4,537 bases of DNA. It comes from a virus. Lineage: Duplodnaviria > Heunggongvirae > Uroviricota > Caudoviricetes. Numbering within the stretch: the stretch's first letter is position 1; every line of letters starts with the position of its first letter. The DNA is taken from IMG/VR virus record IMGVR_UViG_2724679058_000010; one strand, written 5' to 3'. Positions 1 through 4,537 of the stretch are shown here, piece by piece. A program made the translations under genes and the position numbers. The notes under the pieces were generated by a model, which was not told where the DNA came from, ran no database searches, and was given only the letters and a program-made list of their open reading frames with translations.

Positions 1-33
1 TTTTGAACATTTCAGGCTATTTTTCTCGCGTTA

Positions 34-68
34 GGTTCCCGCACAGGTTCCCACGATTTATGGGAACC
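34..68. promoter_or_regulatory. Perfect inverted repeat GGTTCCCA (46-53) / TGGGAACC (61-68) around a 7-bp spacer CGATTTA, plus a third direct copy of GGTTCCC at 34-40; candidate recombinase core-type site or operator upstream of int
   Basis: Read directly from the sequence. Two 8-bp arms flanking a 7-bp spacer is the geometry of tyrosine-recombinase core sites. It lies 20 bp upstream of the int start codon. No T-run follows on either strand, so it is not a terminator. Confidence 0.4.
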
Positions 69-88
69 CGAAATAACGAGGTCGTGTA

Positions 89-1186
89 ATGGCGTACTAT
101 AACATAGAGAAACGACTAAAATCCGATGGCACACCACGCTATCGCTGTAATGTGATTATCAAAGAAAAAGGTGTTATCACTTACAGGGAAAGCAAAACAT
201 TCCCTAAACATGCCCATGCCAAAACATGGGGTACACAGAAAGTGATGGAATTAGATCTATATGGCATTCCATCATCAAATGCAGTTGACGGACTTACAGT
301 CCGTGACTTACTACACAAATATTTAAATGACCCAAATGCCGGAGGTAAAGCAGGTCGTACTAAAAGATATGTGCTGGAACTGCTTATGGATAGTGACATC
401 TCCGCGATCAAACTATCCGAACTGACAGAAAATGACGTAATTGAACATTGTAGGCTAAGAAACAACGCTGGTGCAGGTCCAGCAACAGTCAGCCACGATG
501 TTAGTTATCTTGGCAGTGTTCTGGATGCGGCCAAACCTGTATACGGAATTAATTACACATCAAACCCGGCGAAAAGCGCTCGTCCATATCTACTTAAACT
601 TGGTTTGATTGGTAAATCAAACCGTCGTAATCGTAGACCAGCATCTGATGAACTGGACATGCTCATTGAAGGCCTTCAACAACGATCTACTCATAAATGC
701 TCAAAAATTCCGTTCGTTGATATCCTCAAATTTTCTGTGTGGTCCTGTATGCGAATCGGAGAAGTATGCCGGTTACGATGGGAAGATCTCGACCAAGAAC
801 AAAAATCTATACTCGTAAGAGACAGGAAAGATCCACGCAAAAAGGAAGGCAACCACATGAAAGTAGCCTTGCTTGGGGAAGCCTGGGATATCGTCCAACG
901 ACAGCCCAAAAAATCGGAATTCATTTTTCCATATAACAGCACTTCTGTTACTGCGGGATTTCAGAGAGTAAGAAGCAAATTAGGTATTAAAGATCTGCGA
1001 TACCATGATTTGCGTAGAGAAGGGGCAAGTCGCTTATTTGAGGCTGGCTTTAGTATTGAGGAAGTCGCCCAAGTTACAGGGCATCGTTCATTAAACGTGC
1101 TATGGCAGGTATATACCGAACTGTATCCGAAATCTTTACATAATCGTTTTGAAGAGCTCCAAAAGAGCAGAAATAAGACCTCTTGA
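89..1186 (+). CDS. int: Tyrosine-type site-specific recombinase / phage integrase
   Basis: 365-aa ORF with a GAGG Shine-Dalgarno at 78-81, 7 nt before the ATG. The C-terminal region has the catalytic-domain pattern of tyrosine recombinases (LRYHDLRREGASRLFEAGFSIEEVAQVTGHRSLNVLWQVYTEL, i.e. HxLR ... GHxS ... Y), most reminiscent by eye of Rci/XerC-type catalytic domains. Which integrase subfamily it belongs to is not resolved. Confidence 0.88.
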   Translation: MAYYNIEKRLKSDGTPRYRCNVIIKEKGVITYRESKTFPKHAHAKTWGTQKVMELDLYGIPSSNAVDGLTVRDLLHKYLNDPNAGGKAGRTKRYVLELLMDSDISAIKLSELTENDVIEHCRLRNNAGAGPATVSHDVSYLGSVLDAAKPVYGINYTSNPAKSARPYLLKLGLIGKSNRRNRRPASDELDMLIEGLQQRSTHKCSKIPFVDILKFSVWSCMRIGEVCRLRWEDLDQEQKSILVRDRKDPRKKEGNHMKVALLGEAWDIVQRQPKKSEFIFPYNSTSVTAGFQRVRSKLGIKDLRYHDLRREGASRLFEAGFSIEEVAQVTGHRSLNVLWQVYTELYPKSLHNRFEELQKSRNKTS

Positions 1187-1212
1187 CACTGTTTATCCAT
1201 ACAGTTAAAAAT
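1183..1212 (+). promoter_or_regulatory. Putative sigma70 promoter for the DinI-like gene, overlapped by a weaker upstream LexA-like box
   Basis: Consensus -35 TTGACA at 1183-1188, overlapping the int stop codon. The -10 is less clear; the best candidate is AAAAAT at 1207-1212 with an 18-bp spacer. A second, weaker CTGT-N8-ACAG motif lies at 1189-1204. Confidence 0.4.
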
Positions 1213-1214
1213 AA

Positions 1215-1234
1215 TACTGTATACAAACACAGTA
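1215..1234 (+). promoter_or_regulatory. LexA (SOS) box TACTGTATACAAACACAGTA
   Basis: Matches the E. coli LexA consensus TACTG(TA)5CAGTA at all positions of both half-sites (TACTGT ... ACAGTA) with an A/T-rich spacer. It sits 14 bp upstream of the start codon of a DinI-family gene, and dinI is a classical LexA-regulated gene. Confidence 0.7.
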
Positions 1235-1247
1235 TAGAGGGACTTTT

Positions 1248-1496
1248 ATGCGTATTGAAATCTGTATAGCCAAAGAAAAAATGACTAAAATGCCAACCGG
1301 TGCTGTGGATGCGTTAAAGGAAGAATTAACCCGACGCATCAGTAAACGTTATGACGATGTAGAGGTGATCGTAAAAGCCACCAGCAACGATGGCCTTTCT
1401 GTTACGCGCACCGCCGATAAAGATTCAGCTAAAACTTTTGTTCAGGAAACTCTGAAAGATACCTGGGAGTCTGCTGACGAGTGGTTTGTTCACTAA
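1248..1496 (+). CDS. dinI: DinI-family protein (DNA-damage-inducible protein I homolog), phage-borne
   Basis: 82-aa ORF beginning [11 protein letters not shown] and ending [16 protein letters not shown], which closely parallels the start and the C-terminal ETWESADDWFV signature of E. coli DinI. Shine-Dalgarno AGAGGGA at 1236-1242, and a LexA box immediately upstream. The gene symbol denotes a homolog, not the chromosomal locus. Confidence 0.85.
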
Positions 1497-1562
1497 TTAG
1501 CACGTAAAATCAGTAACGGCTGGAAATCATTCAATACTCGCACTATCGAAAGTTAACCAGCC

Positions 1563-1610
1563 AGCCGCAGTATCCTATCATGACAAGTTACTGCGGCTTT
1601 TTACTTTTTA
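1563..1610 (+). terminator. Putative intrinsic terminator in the convergent intergenic region
   Basis: Perfect 10-bp stem AGCCGCAGTA (1563-1572) / TACTGCGGCT (1589-1598) followed by TTTTACTTTTT. The 16-nt loop is unusually large for an intrinsic terminator, hence moderate confidence. On the minus strand the stem is preceded by an A-tract but not followed by a T-run, so it would be weak in that direction. Confidence 0.5.
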
Positions 1611-1613
1611 TAT

Positions 1614-1901
1614 TTAACGGATCAACATCCAGATCAGCAGACACGCCACCACCGGCACAGCAAAATCCATCAGGCTTGCCACATCCCACGCGCGCGGATC
1701 AAAACCGCCCCACCACGGCATATTCATTCGCTTGCCATGCCCGAACATTTCAATCCAGCGATATTCTGCCTGGGTGTGTTCACGCGCAATGAAGAACGTA
1801 CAACCGGCTATCGCTCCGTAAGCCCAGTTTCCGGTAAAAAGACCAACCAGTATCTGCGCAGCCACAGCACAAAGTGCATGAAGTAAGGGGCTTATATCCA
1901 T
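1614..1901 (-). CDS. Hypothetical small membrane protein (95 aa, about three predicted transmembrane helices), moron candidate
   Basis: ORF preceded by a near-perfect Shine-Dalgarno AAGGAGG (minus strand, 1905-1911), 3 nt before the ATG. Three hydrophobic stretches (LLHALCAVAAQILVGLF, WAYGAIAGCTFFIA, VASLMDFAVPVVACLLIWMLI). No lipobox. GC-rich relative to its flanks. I do not recognise its family. Confidence 0.7.
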   Translation of the reverse strand: MDISPLLHALCAVAAQILVGLFTGNWAYGAIAGCTFFIAREHTQAEYRWIEMFGHGKRMNMPWWGGFDPRAWDVASLMDFAVPVVACLLIWMLIR

Positions 1902-1913
1902 TATTTCCTCCTT

Positions 1914-2192
1914 TCAGCTCCATTCCCGAAGCGGTGTTTCCAGCTCCACGACATAATCAGAGAATACAGAAACATCAAACAAGTCATCAAGAATGCGAAT
2001 GTTGACAAAATAACCATCATTCCGGATACAGACAGGTTCTCCCTCTTCTGTTACCCCTGTTTCTGTGTAGGTGAAACCAATTTCATCAACTAACAGTTTA
2101 TTCTGGAGGTCTTCATCTTCCGCCCAGCCAAGAGATGACAGGAAGGCCTTAAACTGCAGTTTGTCATGAAACTTCAAAGTTAAATCTTTCAT
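1914..2192 (-). CDS. Hypothetical acidic protein (92 aa), translationally coupled to the tail fiber C-terminal segment; possible fiber chaperone/accessory
   Basis: Its ATG (2192-2190) overlaps the stop of the upstream fiber ORF in an ATGA arrangement. The protein is rich in D/E. It has no obvious resemblance to lambda Tfa, which normally ends with a PDIEWPAVP-type motif. Confidence 0.65.
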   Translation of the reverse strand: MKDLTLKFHDKLQFKAFLSSLGWAEDEDLQNKLLVDEIGFTYTETGVTEEGEPVCIRNDGYFVNIRILDDLFDVSVFSDYVVELETPLREWS

Positions 2193-3391
2193 ACGACCTC
2201 TTTTAATTGCCTGTCATTTAATTCTTTATGCCATATGCGGAAATTGCGAATATGGCCAAACAGATGTCGTTCTCCAGTATTCGTCTGCCCTCCAAATCGG
2301 ATATTTTTATCAGCGGTCACGCCATTATATTCACAATAAACTTCATTAACCGCTTTACCATTTGTCACCACATGAAAGTGACCATCAGCTTTTGCAATAC
2401 ATCCAAATGTGGTTTTCTCTGTAAATACATCTGTCGCTGCGCTATTAACATACGAGCCTGAAGGGTTTGACAGACTCATATATAACTTACCACTACCTCT
2501 GTTGATTGCTGCAATTGCTGATTGCCCGGTATTGGCTGCTGCTATATCCCACACGCGGGGTGCGGCGTTTGGTGCAATATCCCAGTTTTTATGAATCTCA
2601 AGTAAAAAAGTAAATGGTAACTTATAAAGATTATTTCTGGTGGGGATACTAACCAAATCACTGGCTCTTGTCGTTGCGCTGCCTCCTGAAATAATAAATG
2701 ATGATACACACGGCCCATTCTCTACTTGTGGGGTGGCAAGATAAATATAGTCACCAGATACTGTTGCCCCACCCTGCTCAGGAGAATACTGTATCTGAGA
2801 GCCTATTTTTAACTCACCATCAATTGCCTGAATCGTTGCCTCTGCAAAAATCCAGCCCGTGGTCTTATCCTTCCTGACTCGTGCCGTAATTCTGCCGGCA
2901 GCACCACCTGTCATATTAATTTCAAGCGTTTGCGTATCAATGTACGCATCGCCAAGAAAAGTTGTTGCACTACCATCATACTTATCAAACCGTATACGTA
3001 ACCTTACCTGTCGTTCTGTTTTAAAACGGCATGAGGTTGTCACGTACTTGTTATCGCCTGAGACATCAACTGACTTTGTTGCAGCAATTGATGCCATATT
3101 AATAGCCGAAGTTTGCCCAACCAGAGAATCGTTGCAGACAAACTTTCCATAAGTAAAACCAAAACTATCCGTCCCGGTTTCGGGCACATCCATGTTTGAT
3201 GACTTCCCCCAGCTGGCTGGACTTTCCGAATTGAGCATGTAGTTCGTTCTTTGTCCCTCAATAAGCAGGCCATCACACTCAAATCGCGGCTCATTAATTT
3301 CCGCCGTTTTCAGTTCGCCAGATTTGTTGATATATGTTGCCGTTGATGCGCGACTGAAATTAACCTGTTTATCACTGGCGACCTGAACCAC
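2189..3391 (-). CDS. Side tail fiber, C-terminal (receptor-binding) segment, with a probable LamG/ConA-like lectin-fold domain at the extreme C-terminus
   Basis: 400-aa ORF. Its frame is open upstream to 3412 (KIAIGDDVV...), and the nearest start is a GTG at 3391 with no convincing Shine-Dalgarno, consistent with a frameshifted continuation of the upstream fiber rather than an independent gene. The C-terminal tail (NIRFGGQTNTGERHLFGHIRNFRIWHKELNDRQLKE) follows the typical LamG closing pattern (F-G-x-I-D-E-V-R-I-Y-N-R-A-L-S-x-x-E-I). Confidence 0.75.
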   Translation of the reverse strand: MVQVASDKQVNFSRASTATYINKSGELKTAEINEPRFECDGLLIEGQRTNYMLNSESPASWGKSSNMDVPETGTDSFGFTYGKFVCNDSLVGQTSAINMASIAATKSVDVSGDNKYVTTSCRFKTERQVRLRIRFDKYDGSATTFLGDAYIDTQTLEINMTGGAAGRITARVRKDKTTGWIFAEATIQAIDGELKIGSQIQYSPEQGGATVSGDYIYLATPQVENGPCVSSFIISGGSATTRASDLVSIPTRNNLYKLPFTFLLEIHKNWDIAPNAAPRVWDIAAANTGQSAIAAINRGSGKLYMSLSNPSGSYVNSAATDVFTEKTTFGCIAKADGHFHVVTNGKAVNEVYCEYNGVTADKNIRFGGQTNTGERHLFGHIRNFRIWHKELNDRQLKEVV

Positions 3392-3405
3392 ATCGTCACC
3401 AATAG

Positions 3406-4251
3406 CTATTTTTTATAGCCCGGAGAAAAACCCGCAATCATATCCAGTGAATCGTTAAACGGTATCCACACATCAGGCAGCGGCGGCACTATATTCGCAT
3501 AGGGCTCTGCAGTCACTTCCGCTGCGGCTTCTGCGCGGTCTGCCGCCTTTTCAGCTCGTGTCGCTGCCGACAGAGCCTCATCCTTTTTCTGCCCGGCCTT
3601 TGTTGCGTCTGCTGCAGCCTCCCGCGCTTTTGTGGTGGCGACTCCGGCATTTTCAGCGGCTGACTCTGCATTACGGCGGGAAGCCTCTTCACTGTCTGCG
3701 GAGGCTTCTTCTGACGCACGGGCATTTGTCTCTGAACGTTCTGCCGCTGTTGCTGCGTTTTGTGCGGCTGTTTTTGAAGAAGCTGCCGCTTTCGCGCTGT
3801 TACCTGCATTCGTCTCTGATGTTTTCGCCGCGTTCCTGGACGATGCCGCTGCTGTTTCTGATTTCTTTGCTGCCGCTGCGCTCTGAGAGGCGGCTTCAGC
3901 GTTGCGTGCCACATCCTCCACCATTACCTCAAAACGACGCAATGCCTCCGGCATGACATCCTCTTCCGTCATGGCACCCAGAAAATCATTCAGCGTCCCC
4001 GGCTTAGAATCCTCATACACGGTGATGGTCCCGGCATGTGAAGGCGGAAAACCTTCAACCAGCAGGATAACGCTGTACTGGCCATACTCGACATCCATGC
4101 TGTAACGTCCGGCTTCATCCGGATTTTCTGAGGCCACCGTGTTCACCACAACCGTGGTGCTGTTACGTTTTGCTTTGAGCTGAATGGTGCAGTTCTGTAT
4201 CGGTTTTCCTGCACCGTCTTTCAGCACACCTGAGATTTTTACTGCTGCCAT
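3406..4251 (-). CDS. stf: Side tail fiber protein, N-terminal anchor domain plus Ala-rich shaft (lambda Stf-like)
   Basis: The translation from the ATG at 4251 (MAAVKISGVLKDGAGKPIQNCTIQLKAKRNSTTVVVNTV...EAGRYSMDVEYGQYSVIL...FPPSHAGTITVYEDS.PGTLNDFL) is nearly collinear with the lambda Stf N-terminus. It is followed by the Ala/Ser/Thr/Glu-rich shaft (AAKTSETNA..., AAERSETNARASE) also found in lambda Stf. The ORF track starts at a GTG at 4257 (MDM...), but the ATG at 4251 is preferred because it has a GGAG Shine-Dalgarno 5 nt upstream and matches the lambda start. Confidence 0.9.
   Translation of the reverse strand: MAAVKISGVLKDGAGKPIQNCTIQLKAKRNSTTVVVNTVASENPDEAGRYSMDVEYGQYSVILLVEGFPPSHAGTITVYEDSKPGTLNDFLGAMTEEDVMPEALRRFEVMVEDVARNAEAASQSAAAAKKSETAAASSRNAAKTSETNAGNSAKAAASSKTAAQNAATAAERSETNARASEEASADSEEASRRNAESAAENAGVATTKAREAAADATKAGQKKDEALSAATRAEKAADRAEAAAEVTAEPYANIVPPLPDVWIPFNDSLDMIAGFSPGYKK
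3409..3414 (-). other. A6 homopolymer (T6 on plus strand) at the frame junction between the two tail-fiber segments
   Basis: Minus strand reads CCG GGC TAT AAA AAA TAG. The downstream frame is offset by -1, so one extra A would fuse the two ORFs. Confidence 0.6.
3486..3900 (-). repeat. Low-complexity Ala/Ser/Glu/Thr-rich coding repeat region (fiber shaft)
   Basis: Protein-level repetition of AAxxSETNA / AAxxAxxAA units. The GCN-rich DNA produces long spurious ORFs in other frames and on the opposite strand. Confidence 0.6.
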
Positions 4252-4262
4252 ATCCACTCCAC

Positions 4263-4289
4263 AAAAAAGCCCGCCTGAACCGGCGGGCT
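4263..4289 (-). terminator. Putative intrinsic terminator downstream of the lom-like gene
   Basis: On the minus strand: 8-bp GC-rich stem AGCCCGCC / GGCGGGCT with a 6-nt loop, followed by TTTTTT (plus-strand A-run at 4263-4268). It lies between the lom stop and the stf ribosome-binding site. Confidence 0.55.
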
Positions 4290-4315
4290 GTCATAACACT
4301 GTGTTACCTGGCTAA

Positions 4316-4537
4316 TCAGAATTTATAACCGACACCCACGATGAAACCGTCAGTGCGCCAGTCACCACTGCCGGAACCTTCATAAGCAAGGTCAATGGCC
4401 ACGGATTCGGTCGGGTTAAACTGCACGCCAGCCCCCCACGCCAGAGACGTGTTGCTGTGGCGACCGTCATCACTTCCGGTCAGCACATCGTGCGTTTTCC
4501 CCTTGTTGTCAGTTACGCGGAGATAATCCCCGGAGAA
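4316..4537 (-). CDS. lom: Lom/Ail/PagC/OmpX-family outer-membrane beta-barrel protein, C-terminal part (gene continues beyond the window)
   Basis: The minus-strand translation from the window edge ends ...ESVAIDLAYEGSGSGDWRTDGFIVGVGYKF with a stop at 4316-4318. The terminal aromatic residue and the EGSGSGDWRTDGF motif are typical of lambda Lom-type barrels. Its position immediately upstream of stf matches the lambda J-lom-stf order. Confidence 0.85.
   Translation of the reverse strand, partial: FSGDYLRVTDNKGKTHDVLTGSDDGRHSNTSLAWGAGVQFNPTESVAIDLAYEGSGSGDWRTDGFIVGVGYKF

Follow-up and report, generated by a model that had tools for sequence, protein, structure and literature searches.

The locus

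The window, by which is meant the whole stretch of 4,537 nucleotides analysed here, is the integrase and tail-fibre end of a lambdoid prophage that sits at dusA of E. coli, and the region forms the distal end of the late operon of that prophage. The closest chromosome, from E. coli O2:H6, is 99.9% identical to the window and carries, in this order, dusA, int, dinI, orf95, orf92, stf (intact, 687 aa), lom and J. The open reading frames had been placed correctly by the initial annotation.

At the left end lies int, a tyrosine integrase gene (89..1186, plus strand; Pfam PF00589, E 1e-20). The RefSeq annotation of the 99.9% identical chromosome puts dusA immediately to the left of the window, with int adjoining its 5' end; the two genes diverge, and 88 nt separate the dusA start codon from the int start. 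A family of dusA-specific integrases has been described (PMC4482086), and int occupies the place expected of a member, directly beside the 5' end of dusA. A dinI-like gene follows (1248..1496, plus strand; Pfam PF06183, E 1e-19; PHROG 189). At the right end the window cuts through lom and retains the 3' part of this gene for an Ail/Lom outer membrane protein (4316..4537, minus strand, by the RefSeq annotation of the 99.9% identical prophage).

Three genes on the minus strand lie between. The first, stf (2189..4251), is a side tail fibre gene of the phage 21 type, annotated in that phage as "side tail fiber"; the intact homologue has 687 aa, and here a 1-nt deletion splits the gene into 3406-4251 and 2189-3391. 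Then come orf92 (1914..2192; 92 aa, PHROG 1361), which overlaps the stop codon of the fibre gene, and orf95 (1614..1901; 95 aa, PHROG 1443, function unknown), with three predicted membrane helices. Just upstream of stf, a G+C-rich hairpin with a T run (4268..4289, minus strand) resembles a terminator, and phage 21 has a terminator annotated there. A promoter and terminator scan of the window gave no enrichment over shuffles, and this hairpin was the only credible site.

Phage 21 offers the closest known system. Its side tail fibre gene CPT_21_22, followed by CPT_21_23 and CPT_21_24, is 97.9% identical in DNA to the window over 1623-4268; the three genes and their order are shared, as is the terminator ahead of them. 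Phage 21 differs in having seven A residues where the window has six, an intact fibre of 686 aa, no lom, and sitABCD beyond the 95-aa gene where the window has dinI and int. A literature search on phage 21 stf or sitABCD found no paper.

Modules of the side tail fibre gene

Two features mark stf as a gene of the lambda type. One is an N-terminal PF08400 domain that has a structurally resolved homologue. The other is its place behind J (and lom) where the late operon ends: the 99.9% identical prophage has the genes in the order J-lom-stf, and phage 21 has J-stf. The initial annotation saw two halves in the fibre. The proximal and distal relatives do indeed differ, but two halves are too simple a picture: by homology, the gene is a patchwork in which at least five modules differ in their relatives. 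An identity map in steps of 30 codons gives separate sets of partners for aa 1-150, 151-240, 241-330, 331-510, 571-660 and 661-687.

The N-terminal anchor domain (aa 3-132; 3856..4245, minus strand) matches PF08400 with E 2e-68 and 229 bits, against a cut-off of 26.6. Within it, aa 3-95 match PDB 9e7m, "Tail fiber protein", with E 5e-51, an entry that we take to be the Stf of Ur-lambda. Homology of the anchor and the position after J and lom are thus shared with lambda Stf. In DNA, the anchor is about 85-93% identical to lambda, Stx and other lambdoid phages, and lambda is about 85% identical to the window over 3899-4443, a segment that includes lom. The band of 80-90% identity holds 264 phage records, and the matches listed from this band stop near nt 353-356 of the gene; the match to lambda and Stx phages extends only to about nt 356. 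Beyond this, lambda differs: its distal part is unrelated to that of the window, and it has a Tfa of 194 aa where the window has the 92-aa gene. The distal part of lambda Stf is similar to T4 gp37, with OmpC as its suggested binding partner (PMC12617516).

The anchor is followed by an Ala-rich shaft (aa 111-256; 3484..3921, minus strand). Homology breaks occur inside it at 3722, 3782 and 3899, and a search of the shaft for tandem repeats found none. Next comes a conserved joint (3242..3483, minus strand), recognised in a protein alignment of nine fibres by the pattern PLPDVWIPFNDSL...GYKKI...FSRASTATYINKSG...EPRFE and common to the fibres of lambdoid phages, Drexlerviridae and T5-like phages. 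The distal module starts at the joint, which is the likely crossover zone, and many homologies end close together at 3483-3510.

The distal core (2546..3241, minus strand) contains a domain like that of the RcGTA head spike fibre (aa 330-530; window 2663-3265), with a match to NCBIfam NF048003 over aa 330-530 (E 1e-14; 55.3 bits, cut-off 36) and, by phmmer, a match of fibre aa 298-544 to aa 44-285 of Rcc01080 in PDB 6tb9 (E 1e-9). From 2813 to 3262 the DNA is about 90% identical to the virulent phage tunus and to 2G7b. The likeness to RcGTA is one of sequence in the core; there the domain sits on a capsid spike, whereas here it belongs to a tail side fibre. The ligand of the RcGTA head spike fibre is extracellular polysaccharide (PMC10218006, PMC7296036). 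By analogy with RcGTA alone, the stf core may also bind a surface polysaccharide (PMC10218006).

A sharp and recurrent homology break at 2545 opens the C-terminal domain (2192..2545, minus strand). This lectin-like part resembles a concanavalin A-like, LamG-like domain (PF13385, Concanavalin A-like/Laminin_G_3, aa 561-682), a resemblance only, since its 24.6 bits lie under the cut-off of 27.6. KarlJaspers is the only relative of the domain, at about 78% DNA identity. In all compared fibres the final 27 codons are conserved.

Relatives of the distal cassette

That the distal fibre and the 92-aa gene form an exchangeable cassette, as had been proposed at the outset, is supported by the origin of their relatives, since those of the anchor and those of the distal part come from different phages. 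In both DNA and protein, the relatives of the distal part are lateral tail fibres of virulent Drexlerviridae, T5-like and Dhillonvirus phages, with matches to tunus, ESCO3, 2G7b, KarlJaspers and the T5-like VSe12, and they carry N-terminal parts unrelated to that of stf. The relatives of the anchor, in lambda and Stx phages, carry different distal parts.

The likeness to the lateral fibres of Drexlerviridae (tunus, KarlJaspers), T5-like Markadamsvirinae (VSe12) and Dhillonvirus takes in the joint, the core and the C-terminal module, with DNA identity reaching about 90%, and extends to the 92-aa gene, which follows the fibre gene in the loci inspected. The N-terminal attachment parts, in contrast, are unrelated to the lambda-type anchor; several of these loci also have a third gene after the 92-aa gene, and the phages are virulent and of lower GC. 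Their lateral tail fibre loci are hypervariable, and probably target O-antigen (PMC8594841).

Homologues of orf92 occur in 143 phage records (tblastn). Of the 40 matches listed, every one in an annotated record adjoins or overlaps a tail fibre gene. In the exchangeable cassette, to which it belongs, orf92 is a constant companion of this type of fibre. Similarity to a Tfa-type chaperone of lambda was sought in Pfam and NCBIfam and not found, and its PHROG has no known function. An AF2 model of orf92 (pLDDT 90) had no PDB match with E < 0.03 (the best was 0.035), and its matches in BFVD are all uncharacterised proteins. It is linkage to the fibre gene that makes orf92 a candidate for a fibre-related role.

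These observations suggest how the locus may have been assembled. The anchor docks the fibre on the tail tip, and the distal part presumably binds the receptor. The distal modules, with orf92, circulate among temperate lambdoid phages and the lower-GC virulent siphoviruses (Drexlerviridae, T5-like, Dhillonvirus), being exchanged, we infer, through recombination within short stretches of conserved sequence: the joint, the border at 2545 and the last 27 codons. Which way the modules moved between virulent and temperate phages can at most be inferred. Taken as a whole, the locus is very probably a mosaic stf of the phage 21 type with a swapped distal cassette, in which a separate, recent and private frameshift has arisen. 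Swapping of modules in the side tail fibre genes of lambdoid phages is, of course, already known, and in this respect the locus is ordinary.

The 95-aa gene

A further proposal, compatible with the mosaic reading and concerning orf95 alone, is that this gene is an independently mobile, moron-like accessory beside the fibre cassette. The AF2 model of orf95 (pLDDT 93) has three long helices; a fold search gave E 2.1 as its best PDB match and only uncharacterised proteins in BFVD, and searches of Pfam, NCBIfam, PHROG and folds returned no function for orf92 or orf95. The family comprises over 568 clusters and shows an invariant AREHTQAEYRWI...NMPWWGGFD loop. Compared with the family of orf92 it is much broader, extending to Aeromonas and Comamonas, and its sites include one after gpJ (a Comamonas prophage), one between tailspike genes (Salmonella) and one outside phages (Aeromonas). 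The gene also has homology borders of its own, at 1623 and 1912-1914, and it accompanies other fibre types in PhiR55_1 and 2G7b.

Base composition, by contrast, does not set orf95 apart. Its GC3s (the GC at synonymous third positions, computed per gene or segment) is that of the lambdoid backbone, represented by anchor and lom (p = 0.42), and is not significantly off that of orf92 alone (p = 0.28). The 63% GC on which its separate acquisition had been argued is a local peak, and the gene averages 53%. Moreover, the block 1623-4268, which holds orf95 and the fibre and has its right border at the foot of the hairpin 4268..4289, is 98-99% identical in most of the 37 IMG/VR loci that were fetched, and neither a promoter nor a terminator belonging to orf95 itself stood out above chance. 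The idea of a separate insert is thus weakly supported: its own borders and wider distribution speak for it, but its backbone-like GC and its travel with the fibre block do not, and independent mobility of this gene is possible though somewhat doubtful.

Base composition along the window

All seven counts of GC made by hand on 60-nt samples in the initial annotation reproduce exactly (0.633, 0.517, 0.45, 0.40, 0.383, 0.633 and 0.433). Along the fibre, GC and GC3s are 0.515 and 0.53 in the anchor, 0.587 and 0.46 in the Ala-rich shaft, 0.458 and 0.41 in the joint, 0.443 and 0.36 in the distal core, and 0.407 and 0.29 in the C-terminal domain, where GC3s is lowest. The neighbouring orf92 has 0.42 and 0.40, and orf95 has 0.53 and 0.49. 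Both values are low in int (0.42 and 0.33), dinI is likewise of low GC (0.44, with GC3s 0.38), and lom is a GC-rich backbone gene (0.58 and 0.59 in its 3' part). Around orf95, the pieces that are odd in composition are the flanking ones of low GC and not orf95 itself. This heterogeneity exceeds chance; the observed change-point statistic was reached by none of 1000 permutations.

Total GC and synonymous GC change in different places. The step in total GC, at about 3484-3530, lies within the gene 70-120 nt upstream of the frameshift and is carried by codon positions 1 and 2, which fall from 0.65 to 0.475 where the Ala-rich shaft ends. The maximum-likelihood change-point of GC3 falls after codon 361 (window about 3169), 240 nt beyond the frameshift and on its opposite side. 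The coincidence of the change in composition with the frameshift, once suggested, is thus not exact. GC3s itself declines gradually along the fibre with no single step, and neighbouring modules do not differ significantly in it (anchor against shaft, p = 0.25; joint against distal part, p = 0.24). Composition alone therefore places no borders, and those given here come from homology.

Could the contrast be a mere by-product of protein composition, that is, of the Ala-rich shaft, with no signal of foreign origin? In the shaft the GC is concentrated in codon positions 1 and 2 (0.65), while GC3s is only 0.46, and the fall in total GC near 3500 is therefore mostly an effect of amino acids. The hump in total GC over the shaft is owed to Ala codons. 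The contrast in GC3s is another matter. Anchor and distal part differ in it (p = 3.5e-4), and uniformity after masking of Ala, the outcome that would have spoken against acquisition, was not found: without Ala codons the values are 0.54 and 0.34 (p = 5e-4). The modules of the fibre also have different sets of relatives, and a purely protein-based origin of the contrast is very unlikely.

Module exchange accounts for the drop in synonymous GC from a backbone-like anchor to the distal part. The backbone gene J has a GC3 of 0.65, against 0.25-0.37 in the fibres of Drexlerviridae and T5-like phages, and the GC of the distal cassette matches those phages of lower GC. Since lambda's own stf and tfa also drop in GC, from 0.58 to 0.49, the low GC of receptor-binding parts could in part reflect something besides foreign origin.

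The A run and the frameshift

The deletion lies in a run of six A residues at 3409..3414 (minus strand), where the near-identical prophage, strain 1290 and phage 21 have seven; this is the sole length difference in their alignment. The shorter run creates a TAG stop at 3406-3408 and shifts the frame, and in the window the reading frame from anchor to tip is broken there. The run has seven A residues in 575 of 577 E. coli records, as well as in 37 contigs from IMG/VR and 36 from metagenomes, and six in none of the more than 640 other copies in these collections. Among full-length copies in loci fetched from IMG/VR and metagenomes, the frame is intact in 43 of 44. An exact look-up of both truncated fibre products, allowing for either possible start, matched no recorded gene. 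A second and different frameshift, considered for the RefSeq entry of strain 1290, was rejected; the fibre frame is intact there, and its split is a choice of annotation.

The run of six A residues is either a private mutation or a homopolymer sequencing error. In the mosaic reading, the frameshift would be a separate and recent event in which one A was lost from a run of seven inside the joint, truncating the fibre after the shaft to 281 aa ending in GYKK. Lambda PaPa provides a parallel, in that a one-base frameshift, at another position, splits its dispensable side fibre gene into orf401 and orf314 (PMC12617516). That frameshift abolishes the side fibres, according to a passage in PMC12617516 that cites Hendrix & Duda 1992.

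One might instead see in the run a functional slippage site, used for programmed frameshifting or as a phase-variable switch of the side fibre. The context, AAA AAA followed by a stop codon, is indeed slippery; on our reading of the sequence, a Lys tRNA slipping by -1 would yield ...GYKK-IAIG..., exactly the wild-type protein; and side fibres are dispensable in lambda, where they were lost through a frameshift (PMC12617516). Against this, the absence of six-A alleles elsewhere gives no sign of switching, with only the longer run seen in nature where a phase-variable homopolymer would show both lengths (0 against 37, 36 and 575). A programmed site would be conserved in diverged homologues and would yield two products. 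The run varies in 4 of 9 fibres, divergent homologues having AAA AAG, AAA ACA or AAA AAA GTG, and the zero frame of the normal seven-A allele gives the full fibre with no need of a second product. A slippage function is accordingly most improbable, and it is just as hard to credit the specific forms it might take, in which six A residues are a reversible "off" state or, through a slip at AAA AAA UAG, still allow a trace of wild-type fibre.

That the frameshift is the scar of an imperfect recombinational join between an anchor half and an acquired receptor-binding half, as the initial annotation had suggested, is almost certainly wrong. It is true that the distal module starts, and total GC falls, no more than about 100 nt away. 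But the module border (about 3484) is 25 codons upstream, the shift sits in a homopolymer within a joint that is in frame and conserved in all fibre types, and no further copy with six A residues exists in any collection searched. Nor is the join itself out of frame elsewhere: it keeps the frame in 575 E. coli records and, as collinear homologues with the same pattern of composition, in the 99.9% identical prophage, phage 21 and those 43 of 44 full-length copies.

Significance

Tail fibre genes of mosaic build, and side fibre genes put out of action by a frameshift, belong to the textbook picture of lambdoid phages, and the allele of stf seen here was already annotated in phage 21; the locus matters little beyond housekeeping. 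For annotation, the split fibre is better entered as a single gene with a homopolymer indel than as a pair of genes or as the scar of a recombination. Were the deletion real, the virions would presumably lack functional side fibres, as do those of lambda PaPa. With its module borders (about 3484, 3240, 2545 and 1914) and its DNA identity of about 90% to a virulent Drexlerviridae phage, the locus is a clean example of host-range modules common to temperate and virulent coliphages, and as such could guide the swapping of fibres in engineered phages.

Identity of the locus

By its ORF list and database matches, the window belongs to one end of an E. coli lambdoid prophage. The best match, E. coli O2:H6 PG20180057, is 99.9% identical across all 4537 bases. 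Here, RefSeq gives the gene order dusA, tyrosine integrase, DinI-like protein, two hypothetical proteins, a 687-aa fibre (labelled "prophage tail fiber N-terminal domain-containing protein"), Ail/Lom, and gpJ. The window's first base lies just outside the start codon of dusA. Phage mEp460_4F5 carries window DNA 1-4268 contiguously, and phage 21, whose large gene is named "side tail fiber" in its annotation, is 97.9% identical to window 1623-4268. In phage 21 and several "Lambda_" isolates, however, the same fibre block is followed by sitABCD (L001 1-2394; L006 1-2894), replacing dinI-int. These are iron/manganese transporter genes, a bacterial cargo operon aboard the phage.

In the integrated state, the integrase gene (window 89-1186) and the tail fibre genes share one prophage end, with int transcribed away from dusA; the attachment site thus seems to be upstream of int. 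In lambda, in contrast, int and J finish at opposite prophage ends. Between dinI and the 95-aa membrane gene, RefSeq records a pseudogene fragment of 81 nt, interrupted by a stop and labelled "capsid protein" (window 1493-1573, minus strand). Homology to other phages is patchy around it. Two IMG/VR loci match 1506-1569 at 86%; the mobile block begins at 1623.

Base composition along the fibre

The initial annotation drew on seven 60-nt GC counts made by hand, all of which were exactly reproduced. Total GC and GC3s (GC at synonymous third positions) were then tabulated for each segment. These are, respectively, 0.58 and 0.59 in lom (3' part), 0.515 and 0.53 in the fibre anchor, 0.587 and 0.46 in the Ala-rich shaft, 0.458 and 0.41 in the joint, 0.443 and 0.36 in the distal core, 0.407 and 0.29 in the C-terminal domain, 0.42 and 0.40 in the 92-aa gene (orf92), 0.53 and 0.49 in the 95-aa gene (orf95), 0.44 and 0.38 in dinI, and 0.42 and 0.33 in int. 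At synonymous sites the anchor differs from the distal part with p = 3.5e-4 (p = 5e-4 with Ala codons excluded), and the observed change-point statistic was reached by 0 of 1000 permutations. Thus, the compositional heterogeneity is real, and the shaft alone does not account for it. The caveat that an Ala-rich shaft is GC-rich by codon necessity holds for the shaft itself, where the excess comes from codon positions 1 and 2 (GC 0.65).

The change had been said to coincide with the frameshift that splits the fibre gene, stf (window 2189-4251, minus strand). It does not, since the best GC3 change-point follows codon 361 (window ~3169), while the frameshift is at codon 283 (window 3409-3414). Total GC falls at ~3484-3530, the end of the shaft, and GC3s declines gradually along the fibre with no single step. 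The composition change only loosely brackets the frameshift.

A fibre of many parts

The mosaic was mapped by separate searches of the two fibre halves, by a local BLAST comparison of the window and twelve fetched loci, and by a per-30-codon identity map of nine fibres. Each part of the fibre has a distinct set of relatives. The anchor (aa 1-150) shares 0.8-0.98 DNA identity with other lambdoid fibres (~85% with lambda up to window 3899), is unrelated to the virulent phages compared, and finds 264 phage records in the 80-90% identity band; among the matches listed, this homology ends near gene nt 353-356. Among the fibres compared, the shaft (aa 151-240) is common only to phage 21 and Lambda_2E9. 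The joint (aa 241-330), where homology ends cluster at 3483-3510, is kept in every fibre compared, including those of Drexlerviridae and T5-like phages. The core (aa 331-510) is ~90% identical in DNA to 2G7b and to tunus, a virulent Warwickvirus phage. A sharp, recurrent homology break follows at window 2545. The C-terminal domain (aa 571-660) has as its sole relative, among the fibres compared, that of Hanrivervirus phage KarlJaspers (~78%), and the last 27 codons are conserved in all of them.

The companion gene orf92 (window 1914-2192, minus strand) overlaps the fibre stop codon. A total of 143 phage records have a homologue. In those rows and loci that were inspected, it lies directly behind a gene for a tail fibre or lateral tail fibre, in lambdoid phages, Drexlerviridae, Dhillonvirus, and Seuratvirus-like and T5-like phages. 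A confident AF2 alpha/beta model matches uncharacterised phage proteins only. Because of the gene linkage, orf92 may act as a fibre-specific helper, and is a candidate new one.

Composition agrees. Drexlerviridae and T5-like fibres have GC 0.40-0.44 and GC3 0.25-0.37 (the lambdoid J gene has GC3 0.65), and the distal cassette is in line with these lower-GC phages. Hypervariable lateral tail fibre loci are described for exactly these groups, Dhillonvirus included (BASEL collection; PMC8594841). Separate relatives for each part, orf92 linkage, composition and this hypervariability together make exchange of the distal fibre with its companion gene, a known phenomenon, well supported. The proposal that the two form an exchangeable cassette was right, yet understated.

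Two records named for other hosts, OR847733.1 ("Listeria phage LM 4-11-1") and MG065692.1 ("Campylobacter phage C13"), match this fibre and orf92 of an E. coli phage, and mislabelling or contamination is the probable cause.

The 95-aa gene

The initial annotation also took orf95 (window 1614-1901, minus strand) for a separately acquired, GC-rich insert. PhiR55_1, with a different fibre, is 98.6% identical over window 1-1914, and 2G7b is 94% identical over window 1623-1912. The family exceeds 568 clusters, reaches Aeromonas and Comamonas, and has no Pfam model. Its members share a nearly invariant loop of 30 residues, AREHTQAEYRWI...NMPWWGGFD, between helices 2 and 3 of this membrane protein. 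The AF2 model is confident (pLDDT 93), and no structural relative was found for it. Relatives follow gpJ in a Comamonas prophage, are flanked by tailspike genes in Salmonella, and in Aeromonas occupy a non-phage site; the family is often found inside phage host-recognition loci. With its own homology borders, wide family and varied sites, orf95 to that extent behaves as a separate unit.

However, its GC3s of 0.49 equals that of the backbone (p = 0.42 against anchor plus lom) and is not significantly above that of orf92 (p = 0.28), and most of the 37 IMG/VR loci fetched have the stretch 1623-4268 as a single 98-99% identical block. The GC of orf95 arises in part from a protein with many W, G, A, R and P residues (GC 0.52 at codon positions 1 and 2). 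The case for an insert is weak; orf95 is better described as a backbone-like gene between low-GC modules.

A private frameshift

In an alignment of the window, the 99.9% identical prophage, phage 21 and a second E. coli chromosome, the sole difference in length lies in one run, of six A's in the window (A6) and seven in the others (A7), GGC TAT AAA AAA [A]TA GCT. With A7, stf is a single frame of 687 codons; with A6, it stops at a TAG directly after GYKK. Both alleles were sought with exact patterns and 67- and 68-nt queries. A6 was found in no IMG/VR viral contig (A7 in 37), no metagenome contig (A7 in 36), no species-representative genome (nor was A7), and none of the 577 complete E. coli genome records with this stretch (A7 exact in 575). 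The truncated fibre products have no entry in the gene-position collection, and the frame is intact in 43 of 44 full-length copies from loci fetched from IMG/VR and metagenomes.

A maintained slippery site was rejected, since more distant fibres do not conserve the run and have AAA AAG, AAA ACA or AAA AAA GTG; to judge from these sequences, the run is simply a chance coding of Lys-Lys-Ile. The suggestion that the cassette had been joined imperfectly is wrong. The distal module border lies at ~codon 256 (window ~3484), the missing A is 25 codons past it, within the conserved joint, and elsewhere this join is always in frame; whole-fibre homologues are collinear and have the same composition pattern, which the initial annotation itself had named as grounds for refutation. 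What separates A6 from A7 is a private one-base homopolymer deletion, which is either a recent mutation or a sequencing/assembly error. Save for the claimed coincidence with the frameshift, the original observation was accurate.

In strain 1290 (L003 3189-5252, corresponding to window 2189-4251), RefSeq gives a pseudogene N-terminal piece and a 574-aa "phage head spike fiber domain-containing protein", although the 687-codon frame is actually intact. The same label is carried by most of the E. coli matches listed across this stretch, and so looks like a systematic annotation artefact.

What the fibre would do, and its loss

Residues 3-132 are a prophage tail fibre N-terminal domain (PF08400) and match the 94-residue "Tail fiber protein" chain of PDB 9e7m, which we take to be Ur-lambda Stf. 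Residues 561-682 resemble a concanavalin/LamG lectin fold, with a score below the Pfam cut-off. Residues 298-544 are homologous to Rcc01080, the head spike fibre of RcGTA and a binder of extracellular polysaccharide (PMC10218006, PMC7296036). The intact protein would be a side fibre anchored on the tail tip, binding a surface glycan and speeding adsorption. The A6 allele would leave a 281-aa stump without the binding domain, and a phage without functional side fibres. Such loss would be tolerable because lambda side fibres are dispensable and were lost from lambda PaPa through a frameshift (PMC12617516).

A mobile element sits in the C-terminal domain at the same point (window ~2322-2329) in Lambda_4C10, 4A7, 1W, 3W, D2 and at least one IMG/VR contig. 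It carries three transposase ORFs of 141, 116 and 537 aa (L053 1038-3454, also L035 and L041, all fetched loci), a layout that looks like that of IS66. The matches on either side share an 8-bp overlap, which suggests a target duplication. Insertion of this element is a second route to fibre inactivation. Nothing at this locus departs from known phage biology.
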